Source: a virus
Strand: one strand, 5' to 3'
Virus record (IMG/VR): IMGVR_UViG_3300028581_003594
Location: 1-64,000 of that record
Length of the DNA: 64,000 nt
The notes below the pieces were generated by a model. It was given only the letters and a program-made list of their open reading frames with translations. It searched no databases and had not been told where the DNA came from. Below are positions 2,746 to 18,349 of the stretch, piece after piece. The stretch's first letter is position 1. The number at the start of each line of letters is the position of its first letter. The position numbers were made by a program, and so were the translations under genes.

Positions 2746-3026
2746 TGTATGGCGTCGTAAGAGAATTCTGGATACAGAGCTATCGCACAGATAGGACGGC
2801 ATTCTATTACGAACTGATATCACTGCTATTCACCGTGGCTGGATCAATAATGTTGACGTTCACTAGTCCCCATCCACAGATGCAGCTGGTGTTTCCTCTC
2901 TATCTTATTGGCTCTGTCACCATGGCCTATTCTGCCTATCGCAGGCGAAACCTATGGATAACTACGCTTGCCGGATGGTTCACCATAATGAACTGCATCG
3001 GCAACTACTTGGTATTTTTTAAATGA
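2745..3026 (+). CDS. Small membrane protein (about 3 TM helices)
   Basis: Three hydrophobic stretches in 93 aa; translationally coupled to both neighbours. Confidence 0.65.
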   Translation: MYGVVREFWIQSYRTDRTAFYYELISLLFTVAGSIMLTFTSPHPQMQLVFPLYLIGSVTMAYSAYRRRNLWITTLAGWFTIMNCIGNYLVFFK

Positions 3027-5689
3027 GCTACATAGACGCATACTATCGCAGGGACGACGACAAGGTGTTGGTTGTGGAGCGTGACGCCACGGGCAAAAGG
3101 AAATTCGTGGACTACGATGCCAGATATGTGTTCTATTATCCCGACGCCCGAGGCAAGCACAGGAGCATACACGGAGAAACTTTGCAGAAGGTCACTTGCG
3201 GCTCATTCAAGGAATTCATAAAAGAACAAAAGATCAGGAGCAACAAGAAACTTTATGAGCAGGACATCAATCCTGTGTTCCGCTGTCTGGAGGAGAATTA
3301 TCTGGGCAAGGATGCTCCAAAACTCAACATAGTGTTCTTTGACATTGAGGTGGACTTTGATCCACAGCGAGGATATTCCACCACCGACGACCCTTTCATG
3401 CCCATAACGGCGATCACCTGTTACCTCAACTGGACTGACCAACTGGTCACATTCGCGGTGCCGCCCAAGGGACTCAGCATGGCAGATGCCAAGCTGCAGG
3501 TGGAGAGATTCAGCAACGTGATGCTGTTTGAGAAAGAAAAGGACATGCTGGACGCTTTTCTGACCTTGGTGGACGAGGGCGATGTTATCAGTGGATGGAA
3601 CTCGGAAGGATACGACATACCTTACACAGTGGGCAGGATCCAAAAGGTATTGAGCTCAGACGACACGAGGAGACTGTGCTTCTGGGGAGAGAAACCCAAG
3701 AAGAGAACATTTGAGAAATATGGCAGGGAACAGATCAGTTATGATCTTATAGGCAGGGTGCACCTGGACCTATTGGAGTTGTATAGGAAGTACACCTATG
3801 AGGAGAGGCATTCTTATCGTTTGGATGCGATAGGCGAATGGGAACTGGATGAGAAGAAGACTGTTTATGAGGGATCACTGGACCAGTTGTACAACAATGA
3901 CTTTGGCATGTTCATAGAATACAACCGACAGGACTGCGACCTGTTGGCCAAATTAGAGAAGAAATTAAAATTCATTGAGCTGGCCAATGAGATCGCACAC
4001 CAGAACACAGTGCTGCTGCAGACCACCATGGGAGCAGTGGCAGTCACAGAGCAGGCCATCATCAATGAGGCGCACAGGAGAGGCATGATAGTGCCGGGCA
4101 GAATCAAGAGAGATGATTCCGCGCCAATCGAGACAGCGGCGGGAGCATATGTGGCCTATCCCAAGAAGGGCATACATGACTGGATAGGATCCGTGGACAT
4201 AAACTCACTGTATCCTTCCGTGATCAGGGCCTTGAACATGGGTCCGGAAACCATCGTGGGACAGATACGTCCTGTGATCACGTCAGCGGAGATAAACAGG
4301 GCCAAGCACCAGGGCAAGTCGTTCGCTACGGCATGGGAAGGGCAGTTCGGTTGCTGGGAGTACCAGGCAGTGATGAACAAGGACAAGGGCACGGAACTGA
4401 TCATTGATTGGGAAGATGGCACCAGTGTCAGGATGAGCGCGGCACAACTGCATGACCTTGTGTTCGACGGCAACAGGCAGTGGATGATCTCTGCCAACGG
4501 AACCATATTCACCTATGAGTTCGAGGGGGTGATACCAGGCTTGTTGAAGAGGTGGTACGCTGAGAGGAAAGAGATGCAAAAAAGAATGAGTGAGTGTGGA
4601 GACAATGCTATTGAACGAGAGTTTTGGGATAAAAGACAATTGGTTAAAAAAATTAATCTAAACTCTCTGTATGGCGCAATTCTAAATCCGGGCTGTCGTT
4701 TCTTTGACATGCGTATTGGACAAAGTGTAACACTAACTGGCAGATGTATCACACAACACATGGCTGCTAAAACCAATGAGATCATAGCAGGCAAATACGA
4801 TCACTTAGGTGAGAGTGTGATATATGGGGACACAGACTCTGTATATTTTTCTGCGTATGCTACATTGAAAAAAGAAATAGATAGTGGGCAGATACCATGG
4901 GGCAAGGAGAACACGATCGCACTGTATGATCGAATTGCTGAAGAAGTAAATGGCACGTTCACTACGTTCATGACCAAGTCATTCCATTGCCCCAAGACCC
5001 GGGGTGATGTCATACGAGCGGGCAGAGAATTGGTGGCCAGCAAAGGACTTTTTATAACCAAAAAAAGATATGCATTGTTGTATTTCGACAAGGAGGGAGA
5101 GCGTGTGGACACGGCGGGCAAGGAAGGCAAGGTCAAGGCCATGGGCCTGGATCTCAAGCGTTCTGACACTCCGGTGTTCGTGCAGGACTTCCTCAGCGAG
5201 ATATTGTATCTGGTGCTGGTGGGCAAGACCGAGACAGAGGTGTTGGACAAGATCAAGCAGTTCCGCGCGGAATTCAAATCAAGGCCGGGCTGGGAGAAGG
5301 GTTCGCCCAAGCGTGCCAACAACGTCACAGAGTACCACGAGGAAGAGAAGAAGAAGGGCAAGGCCAACATGCCTGGACACGTCAGGGCTTCGATCAACTG
5401 GAATCGTTGCAGAGAGCTGTACGGGGATCGATACAGCATGCCGATACTGGATGGCGCCAAGGTCATAGTGTGCAAATTGAGGAACAATCCACTGGGCTAC
5501 ACTTCCATAGCATATCCCGTGGACGAACAGAGATTGCCTGAATGGTTCAAGGAATTGCCGTTTGATTCGGATGGCATGGAGGAGAGCGTGCTGGATGGCA
5601 AGATAGAGAATCTCATCGGCGTGCTGGAATGGGACGTGAGATCCACAGAGACGGGAAACACATTTAACAAACTATTCGAGATGGCGTGA
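3023..5689 (+). CDS. polB: Family B DNA polymerase (T4 gp43-like)
   Basis: Exonuclease motifs FFDIEV, GWNSEGYDIPY and YNRQD; polymerase motifs DINSLYPS, KINLNSLYG, YGDTDS and KKRY. Confidence 0.97.
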   Translation: MSYIDAYYRRDDDKVLVVERDATGKRKFVDYDARYVFYYPDARGKHRSIHGETLQKVTCGSFKEFIKEQKIRSNKKLYEQDINPVFRCLEENYLGKDAPKLNIVFFDIEVDFDPQRGYSTTDDPFMPITAITCYLNWTDQLVTFAVPPKGLSMADAKLQVERFSNVMLFEKEKDMLDAFLTLVDEGDVISGWNSEGYDIPYTVGRIQKVLSSDDTRRLCFWGEKPKKRTFEKYGREQISYDLIGRVHLDLLELYRKYTYEERHSYRLDAIGEWELDEKKTVYEGSLDQLYNNDFGMFIEYNRQDCDLLAKLEKKLKFIELANEIAHQNTVLLQTTMGAVAVTEQAIINEAHRRGMIVPGRIKRDDSAPIETAAGAYVAYPKKGIHDWIGSVDINSLYPSVIRALNMGPETIVGQIRPVITSAEINRAKHQGKSFATAWEGQFGCWEYQAVMNKDKGTELIIDWEDGTSVRMSAAQLHDLVFDGNRQWMISANGTIFTYEFEGVIPGLLKRWYAERKEMQKRMSECGDNAIEREFWDKRQLVKKINLNSLYGAILNPGCRFFDMRIGQSVTLTGRCITQHMAAKTNEIIAGKYDHLGESVIYGDTDSVYFSAYATLKKEIDSGQIPWGKENTIALYDRIAEEVNGTFTTFMTKSFHCPKTRGDVIRAGRELVASKGLFITKKRYALLYFDKEGERVDTAGKEGKVKAMGLDLKRSDTPVFVQDFLSEILYLVLVGKTETEVLDKIKQFRAEFKSRPGWEKGSPKRANNVTEYHEEEKKKGKANMPGHVRASINWNRCRELYGDRYSMPILDGAKVIVCKLRNNPLGYTSIAYPVDEQRLPEWFKELPFDSDGMEESVLDGKIENLIGVLEWDVRSTETGNTFNKLFEMA

Positions 5690-6507
5690 TGCTGAGCATT
5701 GAGGAGATAAAATTAACCATAGAGAAACTGGAGAAGATCAAGGGTCATGACTTCCAGAAGCTGATAGACGACAATCTAAAGATACTCAGAGCCCTGGCCA
5801 TGGCCGTTGACATGAACAACGAGGACCAGATAAACAGGTTGGACAAGACCAAGGACTGGTACGCCGCTGACCTGGAGTGGAGGCATGCCAGGCATGACCT
5901 GCTGCACGACCAGATGTTGTTTGACAGCATAGTGCTCAAGATCAACAACTTCGGCAAGGCCGGGGAGTCCGCACATCTGTGCAACAGCTTGGAGATAGGA
6001 CCCGGCTATGGAAAATTCAGCAAGTGTTTCCTGGCCTGGAGGCTGAACTATTTCGTTGACGTGGTTCCGCACACCCAGACCAAGGTAAAGAAACTGTTCC
6101 TGCCACCGCACCTGCAATTTGTAAAATTTCATCTGACCAATTGGACCGCGTGCCCTGACATACCCAGCAACTCGGTAAATTTTGTGTTCAGCTGGGACAC
6201 ATTTCCATTCTTCACGCAGCAGCACATAAAATTATATCTCAAGGACATACACAGGGTCACTTTGCCCGGCGGCTATGTTTTCCTGCACTATGCCAACTGC
6301 GAATATGATCATGACCTCAACGAGGCCAAGCGTGGTTATTGGAACTACAACACCAAATCGGCCATGACCCAACTGATCAAAGAATGCGGATATAAAGTGA
6401 TAGAGATGAACCAGTTCAAATCTGGCGCCAACTATGCCATATTCCAGAAACCCGGCAATGACAATCCCGTGCTGTACAAGGTAATGGAAATTCCAGCTAA
6501 AAAATAA
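5686..6507 (+). CDS. Class I SAM-dependent methyltransferase
   Basis: Motif I LEIGPGYG, then FVFSWDTF and IHRVTLPGG. Confidence 0.85.
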   Translation: MMLSIEEIKLTIEKLEKIKGHDFQKLIDDNLKILRALAMAVDMNNEDQINRLDKTKDWYAADLEWRHARHDLLHDQMLFDSIVLKINNFGKAGESAHLCNSLEIGPGYGKFSKCFLAWRLNYFVDVVPHTQTKVKKLFLPPHLQFVKFHLTNWTACPDIPSNSVNFVFSWDTFPFFTQQHIKLYLKDIHRVTLPGGYVFLHYANCEYDHDLNEAKRGYWNYNTKSAMTQLIKECGYKVIEMNQFKSGANYAIFQKPGNDNPVLYKVMEIPAKK

Positions 6508-6575: not shown

Positions 6576-7313
6576 ATGATAGACGTATTGAGAGACATAG
6601 TCAAGCACACATACGGTCTGGGCTTCCTGGAGCTGGTCAAGATCACTGGCACAGATGCTGAGACCGCGATCGATTCCATGGCCGAGGATCGATCAGTGAT
6701 ACTGCAGGGCACATTCAAACAGGCACAAACAGGATTGACAGGCACATTTGGAATGCCACAATTGAATAAATTAGATATTCATTTGAAATGTCCTGAATAC
6801 AAAGACAAAGCGAATATTTCAGTCATCAAAGGCAATCGCAATGGTGCCGAGGTACCTGTGGGCATACACTTTGCAAATGAAAAAGGTGATTTCAAAAATG
6901 ATTATCGTTTCATGAACGCTGAGATAATCAACGAGAAATTGAAGACCATCAAGTTCAAGGGTGTCAAATGGGACGTGGAGATCGAACCCACAGTGGCGGG
7001 CGTACAGAGATTCAACTTCCAATCGGTGGCAAACACAGAACATAATACATTCGTTGTGAGAACAGACAATGGCAATTTGATATTCACATTTGGTGATCAA
7101 GCATCACATGGTGGAGAATTCACATTCGCCACGGGAGTCAAGGGCAGCCTTAACAAAGGTTGGAGTTGGCCGGTGGCACAGGTTCTACAAATATTAAAAC
7201 TGTCTGATTCTGCCAAGGTCACTCTGCATTTCTCCAATGAAGGTGCAATGCAAGTCACAGTGGATTCGGGAGTGGGTGTATATCGTTACATCATACCAGC
7301 ACAGGCACAATAA
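6576..7313 (+). CDS. Probable DNA polymerase sliding clamp (gp45/PCNA-like)
   Basis: 245 aa with a two-domain alpha/beta pattern ending GAMQVTVDSGVGVYRYIIPA, as in clamps; located downstream of polB. Confidence 0.55.
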   Translation: MIDVLRDIVKHTYGLGFLELVKITGTDAETAIDSMAEDRSVILQGTFKQAQTGLTGTFGMPQLNKLDIHLKCPEYKDKANISVIKGNRNGAEVPVGIHFANEKGDFKNDYRFMNAEIINEKLKTIKFKGVKWDVEIEPTVAGVQRFNFQSVANTEHNTFVVRTDNGNLIFTFGDQASHGGEFTFATGVKGSLNKGWSWPVAQVLQILKLSDSAKVTLHFSNEGAMQVTVDSGVGVYRYIIPAQAQ

Positions 7314-8758
7314 TGTCAAACATAGGGCAGGAACATCTAGGACCTTTGAACAGGGACTTCGCCAAGTTCTTGCCAGCGATATCTAATTTCTACAACACCT
7401 TCGTCAGCAAACAGAGAGCGAAAGGTGATCACATACCCCGAGAAAGGCTACCCAAAGGTTTTGAGAATGGCGTTGAAGGATTGAATTTCCTCAATCCAGA
7501 AAAGGGTTATTTCACCTATGACGTGGGCCTATACTCAGCAGGACATGCTTGCCTAGATGTGGAAAAAGCACCTGTGGCCGACAGCATGTGTATACAGAGA
7601 GATAGAAAATTCTCTACCATAGTGGGAGATTCGGGCGGATATCAGATAGGCAGAGGAGTTATCAATTTTGATTGGCAAGACTTCGAGGGCAACAAGGCCA
7701 ACAAAGTTAGAAGTGATATATTAAATTGGTTAGAACTAACTGCCGACTGGTCCATGACACTGGACGTGCCAACCTGGGCGGCAGATGAATTGAATTCTCC
7801 CAAGACAGGATTAAAGAGTTTCCGAGACACTCTAAATGGCACAATCTATAACAATAAGTTCTTTCAAAAAAATAGATTGGGACAAACTAAATTTTTAAAC
7901 GTTCTCCAAGGTGATGATTGGGAAACAGCACAAACATGGTATGATGCCATCAAAGATTTTGAGTTTGAAGGTTGGGCAATGGGTGGTATCAACATGTGTG
8001 ACATGGAAGTACTGTTAAAAAGATTGATCATAATGAGAGATGAAAAGAAATTAGACAAGAAAAATTGGATACACGTGTTGGGTACATCACAATTGGACTG
8101 GGCTTGTTTCTTGACACAGATCCAGAGACAATTGAGAGAACATGTCAATCCAGATGTCACAATCAGCTTTGATTCAGCATCGGCTTTCTTGAGCACTGCC
8201 AATGGGCTGGTCTATACGCACAATCTATTCACTCCTAAAAGATGGAGTTACATCATGGAGAAAGCACCAGATGACAAGAGATTAAAAGGCAGCACTATAC
8301 CATTCCCATTCAAGAGTGCTATTGGCAACCGATTGAACATGGGAGATGTTTGTTGGTATGGTCCGGGCGACCTAAATAAAAACGACAAGGAAGGCAAGAC
8401 TGCCTGGGACTCATTCAGTTATTGTTTGATGATGGCACACAATGTTTATAATCATATCACTGCAGTGCAGATTGCCAATGACATGAATGACATCGAATCA
8501 ATCAAACATCAACCCCAAGCGAAACACTGGAGAAAGATCAAGGATTCGGACAACACGGATCAAATGAGCGACTTCGTTCCAAGGAACATATTGTATTTCA
8601 ACACATTTGTCAAAGAGGTATTTGAATCTGAGAAGCCCATGGAATTGATCAGTTCCAACACATCATTCCTGGCAGATCTCAGAGGCACGAGATGGCAGAG
8701 GGCCACAGGTGGTGGCAAGGGCAAAAACAACTTCAGTTCATTATTCGAAGGAGCATAA
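7313..8758 (+). CDS. dpdA: TGT-fold guanine transglycosylase, DpdA-like (inserts 7-deazaguanine into DNA)
   Basis: TGT-family motifs in order: GDSGGYQ, MTLDVP, VLQG, GWAMGG, IHVLG, SFDSAS, HN. Clustered with folE, queE and a queD paralog. Confidence 0.85.
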   Translation: MSNIGQEHLGPLNRDFAKFLPAISNFYNTFVSKQRAKGDHIPRERLPKGFENGVEGLNFLNPEKGYFTYDVGLYSAGHACLDVEKAPVADSMCIQRDRKFSTIVGDSGGYQIGRGVINFDWQDFEGNKANKVRSDILNWLELTADWSMTLDVPTWAADELNSPKTGLKSFRDTLNGTIYNNKFFQKNRLGQTKFLNVLQGDDWETAQTWYDAIKDFEFEGWAMGGINMCDMEVLLKRLIIMRDEKKLDKKNWIHVLGTSQLDWACFLTQIQRQLREHVNPDVTISFDSASAFLSTANGLVYTHNLFTPKRWSYIMEKAPDDKRLKGSTIPFPFKSAIGNRLNMGDVCWYGPGDLNKNDKEGKTAWDSFSYCLMMAHNVYNHITAVQIANDMNDIESIKHQPQAKHWRKIKDSDNTDQMSDFVPRNILYFNTFVKEVFESEKPMELISSNTSFLADLRGTRWQRATGGGKGKNNFSSLFEGA

Positions 8759-8760
8759 AC

Positions 8761-8964
8761 ATGGCAAACAAAAACAAGAAGCTTAGAAAACTACAACTGC
8801 ACCACCATTACCTAAATAGAAAGGTGGAGGAAGTCACTGAATTGAGGCGTCACGACAGGAGCGTGGAAAGCAAGACCATCCTGATGCGTTTGAAGAAAGA
8901 GAAATTGGCGCTGAAGGATGAGATCGCTGAATTGGAAAAGGAATTGGCACAATTAACACTTTGA
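8761..8964 (+). CDS. YdcH/DUF465-like coiled-coil protein
   Basis: H..LNRKV...LKKEKLALKDEI signature; SD AAGGAG precedes ATG 8761. Confidence 0.75.
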   Translation: MANKNKKLRKLQLHHHYLNRKVEEVTELRRHDRSVESKTILMRLKKEKLALKDEIAELEKELAQLTL

Positions 8965-8988
8965 CAATTTAAATTATCATGTTAAAAT
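8961..8988 (+). promoter_or_regulatory. Sigma70-like promoter (extended -10)
   Basis: TTGACA-16 nt-TAAAAT with TG extension, 8 nt before ATG 8997. Confidence 0.6.
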
Positions 8989-8996
8989 TAAACAAT

Positions 8997-9515
8997 ATGC
9001 ACAGGGATTACAACACAGGACATTTTGACAACAACGAGGTAAAGGTATTCACTGGCATTGAGATCGAGCACACGATCGCATATGGCAAGAGGACATTGTT
9101 CCTGGCCACCAATGATCTGGGCACGGAAGAGGTGTTGGAACTGGCCACCATGAATGGCTGCGAGGCAGTGTACTACGGAGCCAACAGGACCTTTCAATAC
9201 AACATAGGGACACATGTTTTCCAAATGAGAAAGTTATTGGACAATGGATACTATGTCACAATTGATTATCCCTATGCAGATCATGAAGAAGTCAAGAAGA
9301 GATTTGCGCTGATATGGAACGAACCAAAATTCATACCATTCTGCTCCATTATATTTGAGCACAGCGATGACGACCAACAACTGCACTTCAAGATAGATGA
9401 TGTCACGTTCAGGCACAGCAATCCTGGCGTGTGGACCATGAGCATGAAGGACTACAAGGCCAAGGCGGGGTTCACAGATTGGGATCAATATGGCAAGGAT
9501 GAGATCATAAAATGA
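8997..9515 (+). CDS. Hypothetical protein within the deazaguanine locus
   Basis: Alpha/beta protein (FTGIEIEHT..GKRTLFL..VYYGAN..FTDWDQY) coupled by ATGA to the QueD paralog. Confidence 0.75.
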   Translation: MHRDYNTGHFDNNEVKVFTGIEIEHTIAYGKRTLFLATNDLGTEEVLELATMNGCEAVYYGANRTFQYNIGTHVFQMRKLLDNGYYVTIDYPYADHEEVKKRFALIWNEPKFIPFCSIIFEHSDDDQQLHFKIDDVTFRHSNPGVWTMSMKDYKAKAGFTDWDQYGKDEIIK

Positions 9516-9934
9516 TTCAAGCACAGAGGGCACAGGCATTGAAAGAAAAATTAAGCCAAAGCTCAAAAATGATCTGGGTAACTTTCCGCAAGGAAGGCAC
9601 TCACAAATATCCTGCGGCACTGACAGATCCAAAATTGGCCACTGGTGATGAGTATGATGTAAGTTTCCTAGGTTATCCTCACAGACACATGTTCCATTTT
9701 CACGTGGCAATTGAAGTGTTCCACGATGACAGAGACATAGAATTCATACAGTTCAAGAGATGGTTGGAGAAGTTGTATGCGGACAAGACGCTGGCGTTGG
9801 ACTACAAGAGTTGTGAGATGATATCAGATGATTTATATCTTGCAATCATAGAACGTTACCCAGGCAGACGAGTAACAATAGAAGTATCAGAGGATGGAGA
9901 GAATGGCTCGAAAGCAGAATACCCAAGAAGTTAA
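9512..9934 (+). CDS. dpdL: QueD/PTPS-paralog T-fold protein with LxxxHRHxF motif (DpdL-type, predicted CDG decarboxylase)
   Basis: GTH, LGYPHRHMF in place of the QueD CxxxHGH motif, IEF, SCEMIS and VSEDGENG. Confidence 0.7.
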   Translation: MIQAQRAQALKEKLSQSSKMIWVTFRKEGTHKYPAALTDPKLATGDEYDVSFLGYPHRHMFHFHVAIEVFHDDRDIEFIQFKRWLEKLYADKTLALDYKSCEMISDDLYLAIIERYPGRRVTIEVSEDGENGSKAEYPRS

Positions 9935-10253
9935 TATAGAAGTCAACATACCAGTCAAGACACTGACCAAGAGAATGGGTCATCTGCCCATAGGCGGTGG
10001 AGCTCTCAACGCCAGTTACACTTTCGTGGACGCAGTGGCCAACGTGTGCACCATCATGGGTAATGCGGGCTACACGTATGGCAAGGATTTCATCTGGGCC
10101 TATCACGGCTACAACGACGACATGGATGACACTGTGACCATATTCGTCAAGGACGAGAAGATCAGGACATGGTTGCATCTCAAGGCCAAGTGCGACTATC
10201 ATATCAAACATACAAATGATGGTGGTGTCAAACTAACAAAGATGGCAAAATGA
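9903..10253 (+). CDS. Hypothetical protein
   Basis: ORF overlaps the end of the dpdL-like gene; GGAGAG precedes ATG 9903. Confidence 0.7.
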   Translation: MARKQNTQEVNIEVNIPVKTLTKRMGHLPIGGGALNASYTFVDAVANVCTIMGNAGYTYGKDFIWAYHGYNDDMDDTVTIFVKDEKIRTWLHLKAKCDYHIKHTNDGGVKLTKMAK

Positions 10254-10616
10254 AAATATTTTACATGGGGCTGGAACCCTCCAGAATGTGTTGTAACTAA
10301 AACAATTAATTCTAAACTCAATAAAAGTAAAAGTGTAATAGATCCAAAATTAAAAACAAATTATGAAATTTATTGTAGAACTGTATGGAGATATACTAAT
10401 AGAAATTATAAAAAATTTATGTCTAATCAAAAAAGAAATAGACAAAATCATATAGATCATATACTATCTATTGTAGAAGGATTTAATAACAATTTAGATC
10501 CAAAAATTGTAGGATCAGTTTATAATTTGAGGATAATAAAAGGTGTTGCTAATCGTAAAAAATCTTATAAGAGTGATATTACTATAAAAGAATTAATAAA
10601 AAGGAACAACAAATGA
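10250..10616 (+). pseudogene. Stub of the glycosyltransferase 5' end (MKIFYMGLEP) followed by a start-less HNH-like homing endonuclease remnant
   Basis: 10250-10300 encodes MKIFYMGLEPSRMCCN*. Frame 10254-10616 is open and AT-rich, reading YEIYCRTVWRYT..HIDHILSIVEGF..VGSVYNLRII..NRKK, a beta-beta-alpha-Me pattern. Confidence 0.7.
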
Positions 10617-11791
10617 GAAAATTATTTTATATGGGCCTTGAAAGTTATCAGGCACGATATACTTTCCAATTAACAGACTGGACAGAAAGAGTTTATAAGA
10701 GACGTGGCATAGAGTATGTGATCGTGCCGGGCACCACCATAGACAACTCCAAAGCGATAGTGACAGGACAGGTGCTGGACGCACATGGCAGAAGTTATTT
10801 TAGCATGAGCCAGATGATGAATTTGGTCAAGATGATGAAAGCAGGAGAGATCACATCAGATGATGCAATATTTTTTGAAGATATGTTCCAACCGGGCATG
10901 GAATCTCTGCCTTATATCATACAGCAATCACCGGAACAATATAGACCAAAAATTTATTTGAGATGCTTGGCACAGGCCATAGATCCAGACGATTTTGTAC
11001 ACGTTTGGGGAATGAGTAAGTGGATGAGTTTATATGAGCAGATGTGTAATGAGATACCAAATGTGCATGTCCTTGCAACCAATGAAGAGATGGTGGCTCA
11101 CATGAGGATAGCGAACTGGAAGGCTCCTATCTATAACATATCTGGGCTGAGTTACGGCAAAGCGGAAGTGTTAGAACGAGTTAAAAAGATCAAACCATTT
11201 GAACAGCGAGCTCACAGAGTTGGATTTGCTGCTAGATGGGATCAAGAGAAACAACCTGGATTCTTCATGGATCTGATAGAACACTGGCATGCAAACAAAA
11301 CTTTGCCTTCTATAGAATTTGCAATATTCTGTGGAGGACCGCTGAGATCCAACAATCCCGTTTATGTAAATCGAGCAAGATTAATGGCAGAAGCAGGTGC
11401 ACTAAAAATATATGAAAATCTTAAAAAGAATGATTATTATGAATTATTGAATGATACTCGAGTGTTATTCAATTGTGCTCTACAGGATTGGGTATCCAAC
11501 ACAGTGTCAGAGGCAGACACTCTAGGTTGTAATGTGCTATTCCCGGCATATCGATCATTTCCGGAAACTTTTGCCAATGATGAAACCAGGATGTATGTGC
11601 CATGGAGCGGCAGAGATGCAATGGAGAAATTAAAAACACTATTGACCAAACCATCTCCTAACATGGGACAGATATCGGACTGGACCGATGGCACGGTTGA
11701 TCGAATGATCGACATCATGACCGGCATAGGCGAACAGTGGAGGAGAGATGGCAGACATTATAGAAACACCGCAGCCGAAAGCAAATATTAA
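10613..11791 (+). CDS. GT-B fold glycosyltransferase (GT4/alpha-glucosyltransferase-like)
   Basis: GFAARWDQEKQP and the C-terminal FNCALQDWVSNTVSEADTLGCNVLFP motif, equivalent to the GT4 E/D-x7-E nucleotide-sugar motif. Confidence 0.8.
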   Translation: MRKLFYMGLESYQARYTFQLTDWTERVYKRRGIEYVIVPGTTIDNSKAIVTGQVLDAHGRSYFSMSQMMNLVKMMKAGEITSDDAIFFEDMFQPGMESLPYIIQQSPEQYRPKIYLRCLAQAIDPDDFVHVWGMSKWMSLYEQMCNEIPNVHVLATNEEMVAHMRIANWKAPIYNISGLSYGKAEVLERVKKIKPFEQRAHRVGFAARWDQEKQPGFFMDLIEHWHANKTLPSIEFAIFCGGPLRSNNPVYVNRARLMAEAGALKIYENLKKNDYYELLNDTRVLFNCALQDWVSNTVSEADTLGCNVLFPAYRSFPETFANDETRMYVPWSGRDAMEKLKTLLTKPSPNMGQISDWTDGTVDRMIDIMTGIGEQWRRDGRHYRNTAAESKY

Positions 11792-11795
11792 AGTC

Positions 11796-12788
11796 ATGAA
11801 CAAGGCAGTGCTGGTAGTGGGAGGAGCCGGCTACATTGGTTCTCACACAGCAAAAGAATTAACAAAAAATGGGTTCACGCCAGTGGTGGTGGATAGAGAT
11901 ATCAAGACCAAACCCTGGGCCACCCAATATGGGCCGGCATTTGAATGCCATCTGCCCAGAGACACAGATTTCCTAAAAGAGATTGTTCACAGATACAACA
12001 TAGATTCTTGCATACATTTTGCCGCACACACACAGGTGGGAGAATCTGTAAAGGATCCATCTAAATATTACAAGAACAATGTGATAATGACCGTGCAGTT
12101 GTTGGACAAACTCAGAGAAGCAGGTGTGAACAAGTTTGTGTTCTCATCCAGTGCAGCCGTTTATGGCGTTCCTGCCAATGGCATAGCAGAAGACGATGCG
12201 ACAGATCTACAACCAATCAATCCCTACGGTAAAGGTAAACTAATGGTGGAGAATATTCTAAAAGATTATTATGTGGCCTATGGGTTGAGCAGTGTGAGTC
12301 TAAGATATTTTAATGCTGCAGGAGCAGATGCTGATGCAGAAATTGGAGAGTTGAGAGAAGATGAATCACATATCATACCATTGGCTATAGAAGCGGCATA
12401 TCAAAATAAGGAATTCAAGTTGTTCGGCACTGATTTTGATACACCAGATGGAACCTGTGTGAGAGATTATGTGCATGTGACTGATCTTGCCAATGCACAT
12501 GTATTATCTCTACAACGTGCATCAGGAGATGTGATCTGTGAAAGATACAATCTGGGGTCGGGCATCAGCACCAGCAACAGACAACTGTTGGACACCATAA
12601 AAAAATATGTGGGCAATATAAAGATTGCGGAGATGGCTAGGCGGGCAGGAGATCCTCCCGTGTTGGTGGCAAATACCACACGTGCAAAAAGTCAATTAGG
12701 ATGGCAACCTAAGCATAGCTCAGTTGACAACATAGTGCAGACTGCTGTAAAATGGTACAGTAAGATCAACCGGAAAGATTTAAACTAA
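11796..12788 (+). CDS. galE: UDP-glucose 4-epimerase
   Basis: GGAGYIGSH, HFAA, FSSSAAVYG, YGKGK, LRYFNAAGA, DGTCVRDYVHV and RRAGDP. Confidence 0.93.
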   Translation: MNKAVLVVGGAGYIGSHTAKELTKNGFTPVVVDRDIKTKPWATQYGPAFECHLPRDTDFLKEIVHRYNIDSCIHFAAHTQVGESVKDPSKYYKNNVIMTVQLLDKLREAGVNKFVFSSSAAVYGVPANGIAEDDATDLQPINPYGKGKLMVENILKDYYVAYGLSSVSLRYFNAAGADADAEIGELREDESHIIPLAIEAAYQNKEFKLFGTDFDTPDGTCVRDYVHVTDLANAHVLSLQRASGDVICERYNLGSGISTSNRQLLDTIKKYVGNIKIAEMARRAGDPPVLVANTTRAKSQLGWQPKHSSVDNIVQTAVKWYSKINRKDLN

Positions 12789-13540
12789 TGAGCGATATCA
12801 ACAGAGATTCCGTAGTGCAAGGCTTGATGGACACCTGGGTGGACAAGAACAAGCCCGTCAGTGAACAGATAAGAGAAAGAGTCGTCAAGGCGGGAGATAG
12901 GTTCTTCGCAGCCGACAACATCAGCCAATACATAGAGGCGGGCGAAAGAGAAAAACTGATCATTGAGTTGACTGCAAAATTTGAGTCAGTGTTGGACAGC
13001 CTGGTGATCGACAGGGTGAATGATCCCAACAGCTCAGGCACGGGCAAGAGATTGGCCAAGATGTACATAAATGAGATAATGGGCGGAAGATATAATCCTG
13101 CTCCGGAAGTCACAACATTCCCCAACGAAGACGGCAGGTATGATCAATTGATCGTGATAAGGTCAGATATAAAAAGTATGTGTTCACATCATCATCAACC
13201 AGTGTCGGGAGTTTGTTATATAGGTTGTCTGCCAGGCAAGAGATTGATTGGATTGAGCAAATACACTCGGATAGCACAACATCAGGCAGCCCGAGGACAT
13301 CTTCAGGAGGAACTGACGGAAAAGATTGCGTACAAGATTTCAAAGCTCACAGAGAGTCCAGCGGTGGGCGTGTACATCAGAGCAAGGCACGGCTGCTGTG
13401 AGAACAGGGGCATAAGGAGCAACAACTCCAGCACACAGACAACGGTGTTGAAAGGGCTGCTGAAAACAGATCCCGGATTAAAAAACGAGTTCATGCACAA
13501 CATTCAATTACAAGAAACACAGGGTGGTACAAATGGTTAA
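12788..13540 (+). CDS. folE: GTP cyclohydrolase I
   Basis: SMCSHHHQP, IGLSK, LQEELT and HGCCENRG zinc-ligand motifs. Confidence 0.95.
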   Translation: MSDINRDSVVQGLMDTWVDKNKPVSEQIRERVVKAGDRFFAADNISQYIEAGEREKLIIELTAKFESVLDSLVIDRVNDPNSSGTGKRLAKMYINEIMGGRYNPAPEVTTFPNEDGRYDQLIVIRSDIKSMCSHHHQPVSGVCYIGCLPGKRLIGLSKYTRIAQHQAARGHLQEELTEKIAYKISKLTESPAVGVYIRARHGCCENRGIRSNNSSTQTTVLKGLLKTDPGLKNEFMHNIQLQETQGGTNG

Positions 13541-13868
13541 CAGCTCAACAGTCAGCACCTGTCCACTATTTCCCGAATTGGAAAATGAAAAGTCACATGG
13601 GTCGTTAGATCCAAATACAGGACAAGTAACTATTCCTGGTCTTTTTTCTGTACAGGCGAACGCAACACTGCCACCGGGAGTGAATGTGGGCAGTGCATCA
13701 ACATCATACACTGTGTCTCATGATGCATGGCAATCCACTGCCAACAGGAATTACGAATTAGAACTACATGAAGAATATCCTGCCCTACGTCAGGCATGGG
13801 AACATTATCAAACTATTTTAAGAATGTGCAAATCTCGAGAGGAGGAGACCGGTGAGAATAGATTATAA
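13524..13868 (+). CDS. Hypothetical protein
   Basis: Fills the gap between folE and guaC and overlaps both; C-terminal EEYPALRQAWEHYQTIL helix. Confidence 0.6.
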   Translation: MVQMVNSSTVSTCPLFPELENEKSHGSLDPNTGQVTIPGLFSVQANATLPPGVNVGSASTSYTVSHDAWQSTANRNYELELHEEYPALRQAWEHYQTILRMCKSREEETGENRL

Positions 13869-14895
13869 TCTACATCTTGATTACTCCGATGTGCTGCTGA
13901 AACCCAAAAGATCCACACTGAATTCTCGCAGAGATGTTGAGATGACTAGAGATTTCACATTTAGAAACAGCAAGAAACAATTATCTTACACTCCCATAAT
14001 AGCATCCAACATGGATGGCGTGGGCACATTCTCCATGGCACGAGTATTGCAAGATTATAAGATGCTCACAGTGATTCGAAAACACTACTCATTCAATGAT
14101 TGGAAGGCCACAGCAGGTTCGGGATTAAAATTCAAATATGTTTCTGCTTGTGTGGGCACCGGTGCCATATGGGATGAAGAAGCACTAGACTATCAAACAT
14201 TGAAACAAGTGATCGCAGCGTTTCCAGACATACCTGCCATCACAATAGACGTGGCAAATGCTTACCACGAGCAGTTCGTGGACTTCGTCAAGAGGATAAG
14301 ATCAGAATTTCCCGACAAGATCATCATAGCAGGCAACGTGGTGTCGCCAGAAATGACTGAAGAATTGATTATTAACGGAGCAGATGTTGTGAAAATAGGT
14401 ATCGGTCCGGGCTCTGTGTGTACCACAAGAACACAGACCGGAGTGGGAGTGCCACAGTTTTCTGCCATAGTTGAGTGTGCTGATGCTGCCAATGGAGTGG
14501 GTGGCCATATCATTGCTGATGGTGGTTGCACCCAATCAGGAGACATTGCCAAGGCCTTGGGTGCAGGTGCTCATTTCGTCATGTTGGGCGGCATGTTGGC
14601 AGCTCACGATGAATCCGAATTGGAATTGCGAGATGGCAAGAGGGTGTTCTACGGCATGAGTTCGGAATCAGCATTTGAGCAACACGGTGCAAGAAAAGAC
14701 GGCTACAGAGGCACCGAAGGTAAAACAGTACTATTGGATAATAGAGGACCAGTGAGAGATACTGTGGAACAGATTCTGGGTGGTGTCAGAAGCTCTTGTG
14801 TATATATTGGTGCAAGAAGAATCAAAGACATGCCTAAATGTGCTCATTTCGTAAGAGTTAATAATATACAAAATAGAATATTCGATGGAAAATAA
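13852..14895 (+). CDS. guaC: GMP reductase
   Basis: LDYSDVLLKPKRSTLNSR, ASNMDGVG, IDVANAY, KIGIGPGSVCTTR, IIADGG, MLGGMLA and FYGMSS. Confidence 0.95.
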   Translation: MRIDYNLHLDYSDVLLKPKRSTLNSRRDVEMTRDFTFRNSKKQLSYTPIIASNMDGVGTFSMARVLQDYKMLTVIRKHYSFNDWKATAGSGLKFKYVSACVGTGAIWDEEALDYQTLKQVIAAFPDIPAITIDVANAYHEQFVDFVKRIRSEFPDKIIIAGNVVSPEMTEELIINGADVVKIGIGPGSVCTTRTQTGVGVPQFSAIVECADAANGVGGHIIADGGCTQSGDIAKALGAGAHFVMLGGMLAAHDESELELRDGKRVFYGMSSESAFEQHGARKDGYRGTEGKTVLLDNRGPVRDTVEQILGGVRSSCVYIGARRIKDMPKCAHFVRVNNIQNRIFDGK

Positions 14896-15352
14896 CGCAA
14901 CTGTAGAAAAATTATACTTTACTAATATACAGATGAGGAATGCTCTGTTACAGATCGAAGACAAACTAGTGCATGACATGTGGCTGCCTGATATCATACT
15001 TGGTGTCAACCGAGGTGGTTGCATTCCGGGAGTTTATCTTTCCCACAGGTTGAAGAAAGAACATGCTGTTTTGGATGTGAGATTGAGAGATCACGCCGCC
15101 AAGCCCAACCTATCTGTGCTGGAACGAGAGTTTGCTTTCCAAAAAAAAATATTGATCATTGATGATATCAATGACACCGGAGCCACCTTCCAATATATCT
15201 TGGACAATTTTGGACGCCATGACAGAGTGAAGTTTGCGGTGGTGATAAACAACAGGCCTTCCCCAGTAAAAGTTGACTATTTTGGTTATGAGATAGACAA
15301 AAACGAGAATCCGCAATGGGTGGTTTTTCCATGGGAAGAATGGCAAAAATAA
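14885..15352 (+). CDS. Type I purine phosphoribosyltransferase (xanthine-guanine PRT-like)
   Basis: GVNRGGCIPG, PRPP-binding motif ILIIDDINDTGAT and C-terminal WVVFPWE. Confidence 0.9.
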   Translation: MENNATVEKLYFTNIQMRNALLQIEDKLVHDMWLPDIILGVNRGGCIPGVYLSHRLKKEHAVLDVRLRDHAAKPNLSVLEREFAFQKKILIIDDINDTGATFQYILDNFGRHDRVKFAVVINNRPSPVKVDYFGYEIDKNENPQWVVFPWEEWQK

Positions 15353-15371
15353 AAAACAACAGGAAAAAAAA

Positions 15372-16013
15372 ATGATACAGTTTGTACAGGACCTTTTAAA
15401 AGGCACGGACAAGATATTGGTCAGGAACCTTGTGATATTGCATACACTTATTATCGCTGTGAGCAATTATTTGGTCACCATACGATTCAGTTTGTTCGCG
15501 GAAAAAATCAATATATTGGGATGGGAGACCAACTTTCCCTTGGCAGCGGCAGCATTCACTTTTCCGTTAGTGGTCGTGGCCAGTGATCTCACTGTGAGAT
15601 TGATCGGCAAGCAGAGCGCAAGGGCAGTGGTGGCGTTGGCAATCATACCGGCCATTGTGGCATCTGTGTTAGTATTATTGTATTTGGGAGACAAGCACGC
15701 CTATAGAGTGGGCATAGCCAGCGGCGTGGCCTATGGCATAGGCACACTGTTGGATGTATATGTTTTTCAAATAATCAGAGAAAAATTTAAAACCAATTGG
15801 TGGGCGGCACCAGCACTGAGCATGATAGCTGCCAACATCATCGACACTTACATATTCTTTTACACGGCGTTCTATCCACAACCATGGGTGCATGCGGTGG
15901 CCTTCAACAACACCATGGTCAAGATCATAGTGGGACAGGTTGTGTTCGTACCGGCCTATGGCATACTGCTTACATACCTGTCCAAGAAATTGAACAGGAA
16001 ATTGGTAGGATAA
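15372..16013 (+). CDS. yhhQ: Queuosine-precursor (preQ0/preQ1) transporter, YhhQ/VUT family
   Basis: IIAVSNYLV, AFTFPLVVVASDLTVRLIG, RVGIASGVAY, LLDVYVF and IDTYIFF; multiple TM helices. Confidence 0.88.
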   Translation: MIQFVQDLLKGTDKILVRNLVILHTLIIAVSNYLVTIRFSLFAEKINILGWETNFPLAAAAFTFPLVVVASDLTVRLIGKQSARAVVALAIIPAIVASVLVLLYLGDKHAYRVGIASGVAYGIGTLLDVYVFQIIREKFKTNWWAAPALSMIAANIIDTYIFFYTAFYPQPWVHAVAFNNTMVKIIVGQVVFVPAYGILLTYLSKKLNRKLVG

Positions 16014-16029
16014 GGATATTTTTGGTAAG

Positions 16030-16058
16030 TTGACTTCCGATCTAAATATCCGTATAAT
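16030..16058 (+). promoter_or_regulatory. Sigma70-like promoter with embedded CTAAATA
   Basis: TTGACT-17 nt-TATAAT; ATG 16065 follows 6 nt later. Confidence 0.75.
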
Positions 16059-16064
16059 ATACAT

Positions 16065-16154
16065 ATGAGCAATAAAGCAGGAAAAATTTATAAAGCTAGT
16101 AAAATCCATAAATACTTTTATGAAGTTATATTGGATCAAAAGACCAGAACATAA
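16065..16154 (+). pseudogene. Orphaned 5' stub of the cupin gene (MSNKAGKIY...)
   Basis: The first 8 codons match the N-terminus MGNKAGKIW of ORF 16697; the frame then runs into endonuclease DNA and stops. Confidence 0.7.
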
Positions 16155-16707
16155 AGATATGTATCAAGAAGGTTATATAGGAATTACAACTACAGAAGGT
16201 ATAAATGGGAGATTATATACACACTTCAATAAATTAAAAAACAATTCTCATCCAAACCCAAAATTACAAAACGCTTATAACAAAGATTCTAATCTGATAG
16301 TTGAAACAATTTACAAAGGATCAATAAAGAATTGTATAAAAAAAGAAAAAAAACTTAGACCCTATAAAAATGTAGGATGGAATATTTTAGAGGGTGGAGG
16401 ATTACCTCCTTTACACAATGGTTATATTTGGTTTACAAATGGAAAAAAAAATAAATTAGATATTGATTGTCCGACTGGTTACTGGCCGGGCAGATTAACA
16501 GTTCAAGGAGAAAATCATGGACATTATGGAAAACCAAAAAAATATAAAACAATAGGATTTAAAAAAGGATATACACCTTGGAATAAAGGACTTTCTTTAG
16601 GACCAAAAACAATAGTAAAATGTCCTAATTGTAATAAAAAGGGTGGGTTGCCTATAATGAAAAGATTTCATTTCACAAATTGTAAGGAGATTAATAATGG
16701 GAAATAA
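16120..16707 (+). mobile_element. Free-standing GIY-YIG (Seg-like) homing endonuclease gene
   Basis: LYWI..GYIGIT..RLYTH catalytic domain; WFTNG, FKKGYTPWNKG and CPNC..MKRFHFTNCK DNA-binding modules; strongly AT-rich; own ATAAATA motif at 16108-16114. Confidence 0.85.
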
Positions 16708-17089
16708 GGCTGGTAAGATATGGGGTTCTACAGAACTAATACATGCCAATGGCGTGTTGGAATTCCATAGGATAGATTTCAAGGCAGGTGGCGTTTGTTC
16801 CAAGCACCAGCACAAGTACAAGTGGAATGGCTTCTACGTGGTCTCGGGCAAGATGAAGATCAAGGTCTGGCAGAGGGATCAGCAAGATCTCATTGATGAA
16901 ACTGTATTAGGACCGGGAGATTTTACTAAAGTTAAACCAGGATACTATCATCTGTTTGAAGGTTTGGAAGATGGCATGGCTTTCGAACTTTATTGGGCTG
17001 AATTCAACCACGATGACATACAGAGAGAGAACGTGGGTCACTTCAGGAGCGGCAACGTTGTGAGACTGGATAAGAAAGATAAAAAATAA
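16697..17089 (+). CDS. Cupin-domain protein (sugar isomerase-like)
   Basis: CSKHQHKYKWNGFYVVSG and LGPGDFTKVKPGYYHLF cupin motifs; SD AAGGAG. Confidence 0.85.
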   Translation: MGNKAGKIWGSTELIHANGVLEFHRIDFKAGGVCSKHQHKYKWNGFYVVSGKMKIKVWQRDQQDLIDETVLGPGDFTKVKPGYYHLFEGLEDGMAFELYWAEFNHDDIQRENVGHFRSGNVVRLDKKDKK

Positions 17090-17502
17090 TGGCCGACATC
17101 TATCACATATGGTGCGACCCAAAGGAAGGGGTCGACGGCAAGGACTTCGCAGAGAAGATCAGGATCTTCCTGGGAGAACTGGTCAGAGACGGCAAGCTGG
17201 AGTCATTCAGGGTCATGAGGATGAAGTTGGGATTCAGGAGCATGGAACTTCCGGACTTCCACATCATGATGGAGACCAAGAACATGCAGCAGCTGGATGA
17301 CGCCATGAGCCTCGTGGGACGCAGGACCGGAGAATTGGAAGGACACCATGTGGCCATGAACTCCCTGGTTGACAAGAACACAATACAACATGCATTGTAC
17401 AGAGACTTCCCTGACGCTTTCCTTGGCAAGACTGGCAATGAGCCAAGCGAGGAAATAAAAGAAATATTAAAGGCAGTGGATCACTTTCATGAGCAAGATT
17501 AA
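17089..17502 (+). CDS. Conserved protein resembling the DUF6614 family
   Basis: YHIWCD..LESFRVMRMKLGF..LPDFHIMME..QLDDA..ALYRDFPD. Family recalled from memory, not searched. Confidence 0.6.
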   Translation: MADIYHIWCDPKEGVDGKDFAEKIRIFLGELVRDGKLESFRVMRMKLGFRSMELPDFHIMMETKNMQQLDDAMSLVGRRTGELEGHHVAMNSLVDKNTIQHALYRDFPDAFLGKTGNEPSEEIKEILKAVDHFHEQD

Positions 17503-18349
17503 GATAGCAGAACTATTCTACAGCATACAGGGCGAGGGTCGCTACATGGGAGTGCCTTCCGTGTTCATGCGCACATTTGGCTGCAACTTCACCTGTGCGG
17601 GTTTTGGCCTAACCAAAGGCATGCGCAGTGACGAGAATGACCGAGTGTTTGAACAACACAAACTGCATCCTTTCAAAGATTACAAAGAGCTGCCTCTGGT
17701 GAACACAGGCTGTGATTCATATGCATCATGGGATCCACGATTCAAAGATCTATCTCCCATGCTGACATCAGATGCCATTGTGGAAAGAACTATGGAGATA
17801 TTGCCTCACAGACGATGGGTGGATGAACATTTCATATTCACAGGCGGAGAACCATTGCTGGGTTGGCAGAGAGCATATCCTGATTTGTTGGAACACGCGA
17901 AGATGCAAGAACTCAAAGAAATAACATTTGAGACCAATGGCACTCAAAAATTACATGTTGATTTTAAAAAATATTTGCAAGAATGGACACAACGCAACAA
18001 CAGAAACAAAGACAGCATTACATTTTCGGTCAGCGCAAAATTAAGCGTGAGCGGAGAAAAACGTGAAGAAGCCATACTGCCTGAAGTGGTGACAGAATAT
18101 GGTGAAGTGGGTCATGTGTATTTGAAATTTGTGGTGGCAGATCAAACAGATGTGCAGGAGGCCATGGAAGCAGTGAAAGATTATCGTAAAGCAGGATTCT
18201 CGGGATCAGTATATCTGATGCCTGTGGGTGGAGTGGAAAGCGTCTACCACATGAACAATAAAACAGTGGCAGAACTGGCAATGAAGATGGGATATAGATA
18301 CAGTGATAGATTACAGGTGCCTCTGTTTAAAAATGCGTGGGGCACATAA
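17489..18349 (+). CDS. queE: 7-carboxy-7-deazaguanine synthase (radical SAM)
   Basis: ELFYSIQGEG, FMRTFGCNFTC...GCDS, FTGGEPL, ETNGT, SVSAKL and YSDRLQV. Confidence 0.92.
   Translation: MSKIKIAELFYSIQGEGRYMGVPSVFMRTFGCNFTCAGFGLTKGMRSDENDRVFEQHKLHPFKDYKELPLVNTGCDSYASWDPRFKDLSPMLTSDAIVERTMEILPHRRWVDEHFIFTGGEPLLGWQRAYPDLLEHAKMQELKEITFETNGTQKLHVDFKKYLQEWTQRNNRNKDSITFSVSAKLSVSGEKREEAILPEVVTEYGEVGHVYLKFVVADQTDVQEAMEAVKDYRKAGFSGSVYLMPVGGVESVYHMNNKTVAELAMKMGYRYSDRLQVPLFKNAWGT

Follow-up and report, generated by a model that had tools for sequence, protein, structure and literature searches.

The DNA analysed here, called the window below, is the first 64 kb (64,000 nucleotides) of the 72,693-bp IMG/VR virus record IMGVR_UViG_3300028581_003594. 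At 7313-18349 on its + strand lies a run of genes for 7-deazaguanine modification of DNA that includes a gene for a glycosyltransferase (GT). Judging from the sequences, the core of this locus is of an already known kind, the FolE/QueE/DpdL/DpdA system of phage phiST, predicted to lead from 7-carboxy-7-deazaguanine (CDG) to 7-deazaguanine (DG) and on to 7-deazaguanine in DNA (dDG). The new element is the GT, which is tied to DpdL. We tentatively propose, giving the idea slightly less than an even chance, that this enzyme glycosylates the product of DpdL, so that a glycosylated 7-deazaguanine is placed in the phage DNA. The central genes are as follows:

7313-8758, + strand: DpdA-like DNA guanine transglycosylase (predicted), 481 aa; fold of tRNA-guanine transglycosylase (TGT); DSGGYQ, residues 106-111, nt 7628-7645
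9512-9934, + strand: DpdL (predicted), QueD/T-fold paralog, 140 aa; motif LGYPHRHMF, residues 53-61, nt 9668-9694
10613-11791, + strand: GT-B (GT4-like) glycosyltransferase (modelled), 392 aa; R208..K213 at nt 11234-11251, D292-x7-E300 at nt 11486-11512
11748-12788, + strand: GalE, UDP-glucose 4-epimerase; TIGR01179, 354.2 bits against a cut-off of 262.3
12788-13540, + strand: FolE, GTP cyclohydrolase I; PF01227, E 4.3e-37; phrog_2197
17489-18349, + strand: QueE, radical-SAM 7-carboxy-7-deazaguanine synthase; phrog_2076, E 1.2e-49

Linkage of the glycosyltransferase to DpdL

Linkage was scored on viral contigs of IMG/VR with hidden Markov models built from our own alignments, using three sets of loci. 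Set A holds the best 80 relatives of the window GT (70-94% identity), set B holds 17 relatives of a representative 36% identical to the window GT, and set C consists of 80 loci from a 23-sequence profile. DpdL was found within 10 kb of the GT in 75/80 loci of set A, 17/17 of set B, and 76/80 of set C. The two genes always share a strand, with median gaps of 816, -4, and 184 nt, respectively. In five of the nine misses, the contig stops within ~2.4 kb of the GT. The window's own phage lineage accounts for most of set A and for about thirty-five of the set-C loci.

This is a large family: among 1.84 billion representatives searched with a profile, 1013 clusters at 50% identity matched (E ≤ 1e-3), 279 of them at E ≤ 1e-30, and the family representatives examined for DpdL linkage were the best 150 of the 1013. 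At 90% identity, at least 7996 clusters match the family (7996/8000 scored candidates), Tara Oceans sequences among them. A scan with P0137 gave no viral relatives.

We also counted gene families within 4 kb of the GT across 184 loci (sets A-C plus seven cultured phages). DpdL was present in 175, GalE in 141, FolE in 136, a DpdA-like gene in 103, canonical QueD in 62, QueE in 43, and a second TGT-like family in 38. Every phage-database record with a tblastn match to the GT also encodes DpdL (14/14). An earlier reading of this DNA from its letters alone (the sequence-only reading) would have been weakened by a GT family occurring mostly without dpdA; this check came out in its favour, with DpdL beside the GT nearly always.

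The GT-DpdL pair occurs in jumbo phages with a family-B DNA polymerase (PolB), PA5oct included, in Kyanoviridae-type (T4-like cyanophage) loci, which make up thirty-four of set C, and in phages with a family-A polymerase (PolA) fused to uracil-DNA glycosylase (UDG). The last background is that of set B, where the pair is followed by a sliding clamp and the UDG-fused family-A polymerase, a kind of polymerase reported for phages with T-modified genomes. Seven cultured phages have DpdL and/or a TGT-like gene next to the GT: PA5oct, BUCT-ZZ01, Acidovorax phage ACP17, Sinorhizobium phage Phosso (469 kb), Xanthomonas phages BUDD and X1, and Burkholderia phage BCSR5. Six contigs of metagenome-assembled genomes in a species-representative genome collection match the close-family patterns, and all six have the jumbo-phage gene order (6/6). 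The sequence-only reading had placed the GT in the deazaguanine pathway. As a matter of synteny this link is strongly supported, with DpdL on the same strand in several unrelated backgrounds, while the interpretation as a whole is supported in part.

Thirteen cultured phage types with DpdL were compared. Seven have the GT within 10 kb (the seven just named), and a profile search of whole genomes found no GT in the other six (phiST, RHph_I1_18, Bakedbeans, Ahp1, D479, and MA9V-3); as a positive control, the same search found the GT in 4/4 known carriers. The GT-less state is scattered over the DpdL tree, a weak tree of a short protein, and requires four changes (bootstrap range 4-5), at least two of which are forced by well-supported branches. 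The DpdL of GT-less RHph_I1_18 is 61% identical to that of the window and is closer to it than are the DpdLs of GT-bearing ACP17 and PA5oct. The linkage is one-sided: the GT almost never occurs without DpdL, and DpdL often occurs without the GT. Such a distribution would be expected if the GT were an add-on step acting on or after the DpdL product, given that DpdL works without the GT and in phiST yields plain dDG.

Within the module, set A also shows the strongest conservation for GT and DpdL, with a median identity of 72% each, compared with 64% for PolB, 57% for FolE, 46% for the DpdA-like protein, 43% for QueE, and 41% for GalE. A second GT is present in BUCT-type loci (34/80 of set C), which we liken to the known di-glycosylated phage bases. 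In BUDD (locus L190, 5897-6391) and X1 (locus L191, 5843-6376) a PP-loop protein of the PAPS-reductase type lies between FolE and the GT and may carry out a further tailoring or QueC-like step.

DpdL and the core system

Cui, Hutinet et al. (2023, PMC10516641) describe DpdL as a QueD paralog in which the QueD signature CxxxHGH is changed to LxxxHRHxF and the catalytic Cys required by QueD/PTPS chemistry is missing. They propose that it decarboxylates CDG to 7-deazaguanine, which as dDG fully replaces G in Cellulophaga phage phiST (PMC10516641). The 140-aa protein of the window contains the stretch SFLGYPHRHMFHF, that is, L53-x3-H57-R58-H59-x-F61. Twenty-seven family sequences show no variation at L53, R58, H59, and F61, and H57 is kept in at least 90% of them. 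By tblastn the window protein is 57% identical to the DpdL of ACP17 (E 2e-37) and 30.5% identical to that of phiST (E 7e-8). Compared with an alignment of sixteen canonical phage QueDs, all of which keep CxxxHG[HY], it scored 83% probability in hhalign (E 9.1e-6). Its nearest named Atlas cluster is PTPS, and the Pfam PTPS model gave no match to it.

The context agrees, with DpdA-like, FolE, and QueE genes in the run, no intact QueC, and QueD in 4/5 relatives. From this sequence evidence, the 140-aa HRH protein is DpdL, a predicted CDG decarboxylase. The sequence-only reading was right that it is a QueD paralog with an HRH motif, though the protein is the published DpdL (PMC10516641) and not a new one. 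In two GT-less phages, Vibrio phage Bakedbeans (gp176; locus L193, 9263-10414) and Chryseobacterium phage MA9V-3 (locus L197, 9395-10276), DpdL makes up only the C-terminal portion of a longer protein, whose N-terminal domain of ~200-260 aa has no Pfam match.

Fold and conserved residues of the glycosyltransferase

Pfam recognises the 392-aa protein only below threshold (PF13524, Glyco_trans_1_2, E 0.0028, 18.1 bits against a cut-off of 25), and a few of its homologs match PF00534. Profile searches of PDB sequences with the GT, DpdL, and the 178-aa family described below returned nothing usable, and the GT is placed by its fold only. Its AlphaFold2 model (pLDDT 69.3) matched BshA, TarM, PimA, glycogen synthase, and MshA in the PDB by Foldseek, with E values down to 2e-8. 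At the level of the model, the protein clearly has a GT-B fold and is nearest to GT4-type enzymes. In BFVD the ACP17 protein annotated as 'Glycosyl transferase family 1' ranks second, and a cyanophage 'DNA alpha-GT' appears only at rank 30.

Thirty-eight diverse GTs, when aligned, all have R208, K213, P215, and D292, and at least 90% of them have E300. We take R208/K213 to be the phosphate-binding R/K pair of GT4 enzymes and D292-x7-E300 to be their acidic-x7-Glu motif; R208..K213 aligns with GRLDHNK of WlaC (6eji), in a match that is not significant (E 0.22). These residues fit an active nucleotide-sugar GT. In the same thirty-eight sequences R15, Q67, D90, G95, A120, D127, F128, W137, and E142 are conserved in the N-terminal half. 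Since this is the acceptor half, its conservation suggests one fixed acceptor rather than host-specific glycans. Isoelectric point was dropped as a sign of DNA binding: the medians for the GT (5.8) and the DpdA-like protein (5.7) are both acidic.

The DpdA-like transglycosylase

The 481-aa protein has no match in Pfam (PF01702 included), PHROG, or NCBIfam, and a profile search of PDB sequences with its family came back empty. Its AlphaFold2 model is good (pLDDT 86.2, pTM 0.88), and the first fifty Foldseek matches in the PDB are all tRNA-guanine transglycosylases (probability 1.00, E 2.5e-8 to 1.9e-7, TM 0.36-0.54). The model therefore bears out the label 'dpdA-like' given in the sequence-only reading: at the level of predicted fold, the protein is DpdA-like. 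When it was aligned with eighteen relatives, D106-S-G-G-x-Q111 and D287 (in FDSAS) were invariant, and both motifs align with the same motifs of the ACP17 protein. D106 and D287 are presumably the equivalents of the catalytic Asp residues of TGT.

The protein is 40.9% identical to EST35_0316 of PA5oct. By hhalign, its family is linked to the 424-aa protein of ACP17 (92% probability). The comparison with the 416-aa protein of BUCT-ZZ01 gave 20% probability, with the same motifs aligned. That with the 259-aa phiST gp042, which we took from gene order to be CGPG_00065 (DpdA3), is weak (24% probability, E 8e-4, 89 columns). The DpdA-like profile A1 found nothing in five whole genomes, including that of ACP17 (0/5); as hhalign does link the ACP17 protein, this search is uninformative and was not used. 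In the set-B contigs (L090-L104) a basic protein of ~300 aa with DSGA and VDSTSW-like motifs, seen by eye, is encoded ~0.1-6 kb downstream of the GT. Comparison of this family with A1 and phiST gp042 by hhalign gave no support, and it is a possible small DpdA candidate.

Precursor genes and the sugar donor

All the genes listed in the sequence-only reading are present at 7313-18349 on the + strand, and their families were confirmed or refined. The QueE reading frame matches QueE models of NCBIfam below their cut-offs. Neither PF01242 (QueD) nor PF01702 (TGT) has a match anywhere in the 72,693-bp record. Canonical QueD lies near FolE in complete relatives, and PTPS/QueD was found in 4/5 relatives searched; the QueD of these relatives has no counterpart in the window. 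QueC was above its cut-off in 0/5 relatives, two of them at least 95% complete. The reported lack of a canonical QueD (in the whole record) and of an intact QueC therefore holds; QueF and ArcS, named alongside them, were not searched for. The only QueC-like ORF, of 269 aa at 49343-50152 (+), matches just the last sixty positions of PF06508, a Cys cluster included. The PP-loop at its N-terminus looks degenerate, and the structural genes around it, far from the run, are on the other strand; it was not found near the GT in relatives.

GalE follows the GT in 78/80 loci of set A and 65/80 of set C, and in 0/17 of set B. It is the probable supplier of UDP-galactose, or catalyses the reverse reaction. 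The idea that GalE feeds the GT, put forward in the sequence-only reading, is favoured by adjacency in sets A and C and disfavoured by set B.

Comparison with known systems

The closest characterised system is that of phiST, whose dDG pathway consists of FolE, QueD, QueE, DpdL, and DpdA3 (PMC10516641). It shares FolE, QueE, and the LxxxHRHxF DpdL with the window. Both have a distant transglycosylase of TGT fold, neither has QueC, and for both the predicted route is CDG to DG to dDG. In contrast to the window, phiST has no GT or GalE anywhere in its genome, and its transglycosylase is only 259 aa long. The window adds GT, GalE, GuaC, a phosphoribosyltransferase (PRTase), and YhhQ, and QueD is missing from the fragment.

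Pseudomonas phage PA5oct (Wroclawvirus) has the same gene order at EST35_0314-0325: PolB, structural protein, DpdA-like, GT, DpdL, QueE, and RNase H. Its proteins are 41% (DpdA-like), 55% (DpdL), and only 22% (GT) identical to those of the window. The GT of PA5oct lies directly between dpdA-like and dpdL, and there is only an epimerase-like fragment of 172 aa. The DNA of PA5oct is resistant to five G-containing restriction enzymes, and a modified G in it is inferred from experiment (PMC12191111). Its deazaguanine system was noted by Iyer et al. (2021, PMC7824862), in the portion available to us without a link to the GT. In the T4-like Synechococcus phage BUCT-ZZ01, whose GT is 66% identical to that of the window, the run is QueE-PRTase-x-QueD-FolE-GT2-TGT-like-DpdL-GT.

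Two more distant systems offer parallels. The alpha- and beta-glucosyltransferases of T4, which act on DNA containing hydroxymethylcytosine (hmC), are likewise GT-B enzymes encoded with base-modification genes, use a UDP-sugar, and serve anti-restriction. However, three jumbo relatives and BUCT-ZZ01 have no ThyA-type hydroxymethylase, the pathway is one for a purine analogue, and the likeness is limited to the GT-B fold. HuiG, from the huimycin cluster of Kutzneria, transfers GlcNAc to a free 7-deazapurine made by FolE/QueD/QueE-type enzymes (bioRxiv 10.64898/2026.04.15.718813). The huimycin acceptor is derived from preQ0, requiring QueC and O-methylation, and the cluster is a bacterial secondary-metabolite cluster described there without a nucleic-acid insertion enzyme (bioRxiv 10.64898/2026.04.15.718813). 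We liken HuiG to the window GT by reaction and not by homology.

Proposed pathway

In the pathway that we propose, FolE, a QueD encoded elsewhere than on this fragment, and QueE would make CDG, and DpdL would decarboxylate it to DG. The DpdA-like enzyme of TGT fold would exchange guanine in phage DNA for the deazaguanine. The GT-B enzyme would add a sugar from a UDP-hexose, interconverted by the adjacent GalE, acting either on free DG before insertion or on dDG within DNA. The free-base route would resemble HuiG, with the unusually large transglycosylase then inserting a glycosylated base, and the DNA-level route would resemble the T4 enzymes. Virion DNA would then carry glycosylated 7-deazaguanine, blocking restriction. 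The PRTase and GMP reductase may recycle the excised guanine, and YhhQ may import or salvage precursors.

Because the HRH paralog is DpdL, a predicted CDG decarboxylase, the likely acceptor is DG or its immediate precursor. The sequence-only reading had named any CDG-derived base; as stated this does not hold, and it narrows to DG or the base just before it. We infer the transfer of a sugar to deazaguanine by the GT, and equally which sugar it is, which atom receives it, and whether this happens on the free base or on DNA.

Several points weigh against this proposal. Four miss loci, on three distinct contigs with full flanks, have a GT without DpdL within 10 kb, and the linkage counts are not independent events, sets A and C sharing at least two contigs (L042 = L136 and L027 = L145). 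The GT model is of moderate quality, and its matches are to generic GT-B folds and to no DNA glucosyltransferase in particular. GalE is missing from all seventeen set-B loci. With neither a hydroxyl nor an amine side chain at C7, DG presents no obvious acceptor atom: the sugar would have to go on N2 or O6, on C7 or C8 as a C-glycoside, or, should the GT act ahead of decarboxylation, on the CDG carboxyl. We know of no GT4-like retaining enzyme that acts as a C-glycosyltransferase. The decarboxylase activity of DpdL is itself only predicted, and expression in E. coli failed (PMC10516641).

Since the GT depends on DpdL and not on QueC-type chemistry, the freed C7 is, speculatively, an attractive site. 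The GT could form a C-C bond at the electron-rich C7-H, giving a 7-C-glycosyl-7-deazaguanine in place of guanine, with the second GT of BUCT-type loci extending it to a disaccharide. We regard this specific version as a long shot.

Among other explanations, the product of the GT could be a small molecule, either a glycosylated 7-deazapurine like huimycin or a pterin glycoside, with the DNA carrying plain dDG or nothing extra. Cyanobacterial biopterin glucoside is made by FolE, a PTPS-like enzyme, and a GT, and the recurring core in set B is FolE-GT-DpdL, with QueE within 10 kb in only 5-6/17 loci. A tetrahydrobiopterin alpha-glucosyltransferase (5ze7) ranks eighth among the Foldseek matches of the GT, with the lowest rmsd of the top ten (TMt 0.57), but all GT4 enzymes score about alike and the match is non-specific. 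HuiG does glycosylate a free 7-deazapurine, while metabolite clusters of its kind are described without insertion machinery (bioRxiv 10.64898/2026.04.15.718813). By contrast, a TGT-like gene is contiguous with GT and DpdL in PA5oct, ACP17, BUDD/X1, BCSR5, and BUCT-ZZ01, and TGT-like families lie within 4 kb of the GT in 103 + 38 of the 184 loci. DpdL activity being a prediction leaves room for a small-molecule product, though DpdL lacks the Cys on which QueD/PTPS chemistry depends (PMC10516641). The hosts belong to many phyla and would presumably have no shared use for a pterin glycoside, and we consider a small-molecule product unlikely. Slightly less likely still is that the GT is required for making or inserting DG but leaves no sugar behind, so that the final base is plain dDG, as in phiST; it might generate a short-lived glycosylated or activated intermediate, or work together with DpdL or DpdA. 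Under this explanation it would make sense that GT and DpdL are equally and strongly conserved, that the ACP17 GT sits between dpdL and dpdA, and that ACP17 dpdL and dpdA together gave no dDG in E. coli, where other enzymes were perhaps required (PMC10516641). Yet dpdL and dpdA of phiST failed in E. coli as well, and the failure is not specific to systems with a GT (PMC10516641). Moreover, phiST is fully substituted with dDG and has no GT in its genome, five more DpdL phage types are GT-less, and the adjacent GalE and the second GT of BUCT-type loci suggest that a sugar stays attached.

The GT and GalE might instead have nothing to do with deazaguanine and simply share its early-gene block, their target being a protein, an envelope glycan of the host, or something else. 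GT-B folds are generic, the window encodes a second sugar enzyme (25585-26682, see below), and envelope-glycan GTs are common in phages, with GT clusters in cyanophages (Iyer et al. 2021, PMC7824862). Same-strand linkage to DpdL in ~95% of the 177 sampled loci, its recurrence in seven cultured phage types with different replication modules, and an N-terminal (acceptor) half that argues for one fixed acceptor make this improbable. Finally, the GT could glycosylate hmC or hydroxymethyluracil in DNA, as the glucosyltransferases of T-even phages do. GT-B DNA glucosyltransferases are the classical phage precedent, and the cyanophage 'DNA alpha-GT' in BFVD could be counted in favour. A ThyA-family gene (PF00303) was, however, absent from three relatives, G001 (100% complete), G003 (95%), and G002 (89%), and from BUCT-ZZ01, in a search that did not extend to the window's own record. 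PA5oct has a single ThyA (E 9.4e-78), consistent with an ordinary one. Complete relatives thus have no synthase for the hmC acceptor that the sequence-only reading had listed as an alternative. How PA5oct DNA responds to restriction enzymes also points to G (PMC12191111), and modification of a hydroxymethyl pyrimidine is very improbable indeed.

Possible significance

To our knowledge, all eight known phage 7-deazaguanine DNA bases are small and sugar-free, and sugar decoration of phage bases is known only on pyrimidines. A deazaguanine bearing a sugar, if it exists, would merge both strategies in a new class of DNA base. Should the proposal be right, ocean viromes would commonly contain such a base, with consequences for sequencing, for methods that rely on restriction, and for the biology of host defence. 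Were the sugar C-linked at C7, this would be a first on two counts, as a glycosylated purine analogue within a genome and as a DNA base decorated with a C-glycosidic sugar, and it would be widespread in marine phages. The proposal also offers a candidate explanation for the modified G of PA5oct, a therapeutic-candidate phage, and for the failed reconstitution of dDG with dpdL and dpdA of ACP17, from which the intervening GT was omitted. Even with no sugar in DNA, the strict coupling of GT and DpdL would mark an unrecognised step in DpdL-type pathways.

The portions available to us of PMC12191111, PMC10516641, PMC12028318, PMC13282480, PMC7824862, and bioRxiv 10.1101/2025.10.29.685425 contain nothing linking a glycosyltransferase to deazaguanine in DNA; this excludes the supplement of PMC10516641, whose lists of DpdL/DpdA3 phages may already show the GT.

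Other genes of the run and the surrounding window

The 72,693-bp record has a CheckV completeness of 21%, and relatives of the same gene order are far larger (317-353 kb, one of them with terminal repeats and rated 100% complete); the window is therefore a fragment of a marine jumbo phage. The whole locus had no nucleotide match in the phage collection (megablast). A co-oriented block on the + strand, at ~6-26682, holds replication and nucleotide-metabolism genes in the order PolB, S-adenosylmethionine (SAM) methyltransferase, phrog_12062 protein, deazaguanine run, and RNase H/5'-3' exonuclease. The remaining features of the block are:

3023-5689, + strand: PolB, upstream of the deazaguanine run
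8979-9515, + strand: conserved 178-aa protein, between dpdA-like and dpdL in the jumbo lineage
9894-10253, + strand: 119-aa protein, in close relatives only (32/80 set-A loci)
13852-14895, + strand: GuaC, GMP reductase; NF003470, 470 bits against a cut-off of 397
14885-15352, + strand: purine (xanthine/guanine-type) PRTase; PF00156, E 9.5e-13; phrog_8995
15372-16013, + strand: YhhQ/Vut_1 queuosine-precursor transporter; TIGR00697, 86 bits against 51; PF02592
16697-17089, + strand: cupin protein; PF07883, E 1.4e-7; in 27/80 loci, part of the lineage only
17089-17502, + strand: DUF6614 protein; PF20319, E 1.2e-27; in 14/80 loci

The 178-aa protein was found in 68/80 set-A and 30/80 set-C loci, and family libraries, the PDB, and the Atlas gave no lead on it. 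A Phosso 'glycosylase' considered as its homolog was rejected (18% identity, poor alignment). The 119-aa protein has no family match in Pfam, PHROG, or NCBIfam. A homolog of the PRTase is present in the BUCT-ZZ01 cluster.

Further small reading frames lie within the run. At 10419-10616 (+), just upstream of the GT, a 65-aa ORF matches only the C-terminal quarter of phrog_5104 (positions 160-212 of 228) and could be what is left of a longer gene. A 195-aa ORF at 16120-16707 (+), located between yhhQ and the cupin gene, has an N-terminus that looks GIY-YIG-like by eye. It has no family match, is missing from 80/80 related loci, and is probably a homing endonuclease inserted into the cluster. This ORF and the DUF6614 gene at 17089-17502 are additional to the genes named in the sequence-only reading.

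Elsewhere in the block, the SAM-dependent methyltransferase at 5686-6507 (+), between PolB and the phrog_12062 protein, is kept in 47-48/80 relatives. A second sugar epimerase/dehydratase of the SDR (short-chain dehydrogenase/reductase) type is encoded at 25585-26682 (+); it matches PF01370 (E 7.9e-40) and falls under every NCBIfam cut-off. At 21240-23587 (+) lies a conserved gene pair, for a MoxR-type AAA ATPase and, after it, a DUF2201 metallopeptidase/VWA protein. Near the end of the window, a single ORF of 3407 aa occupies 53750-63973 on the - strand.

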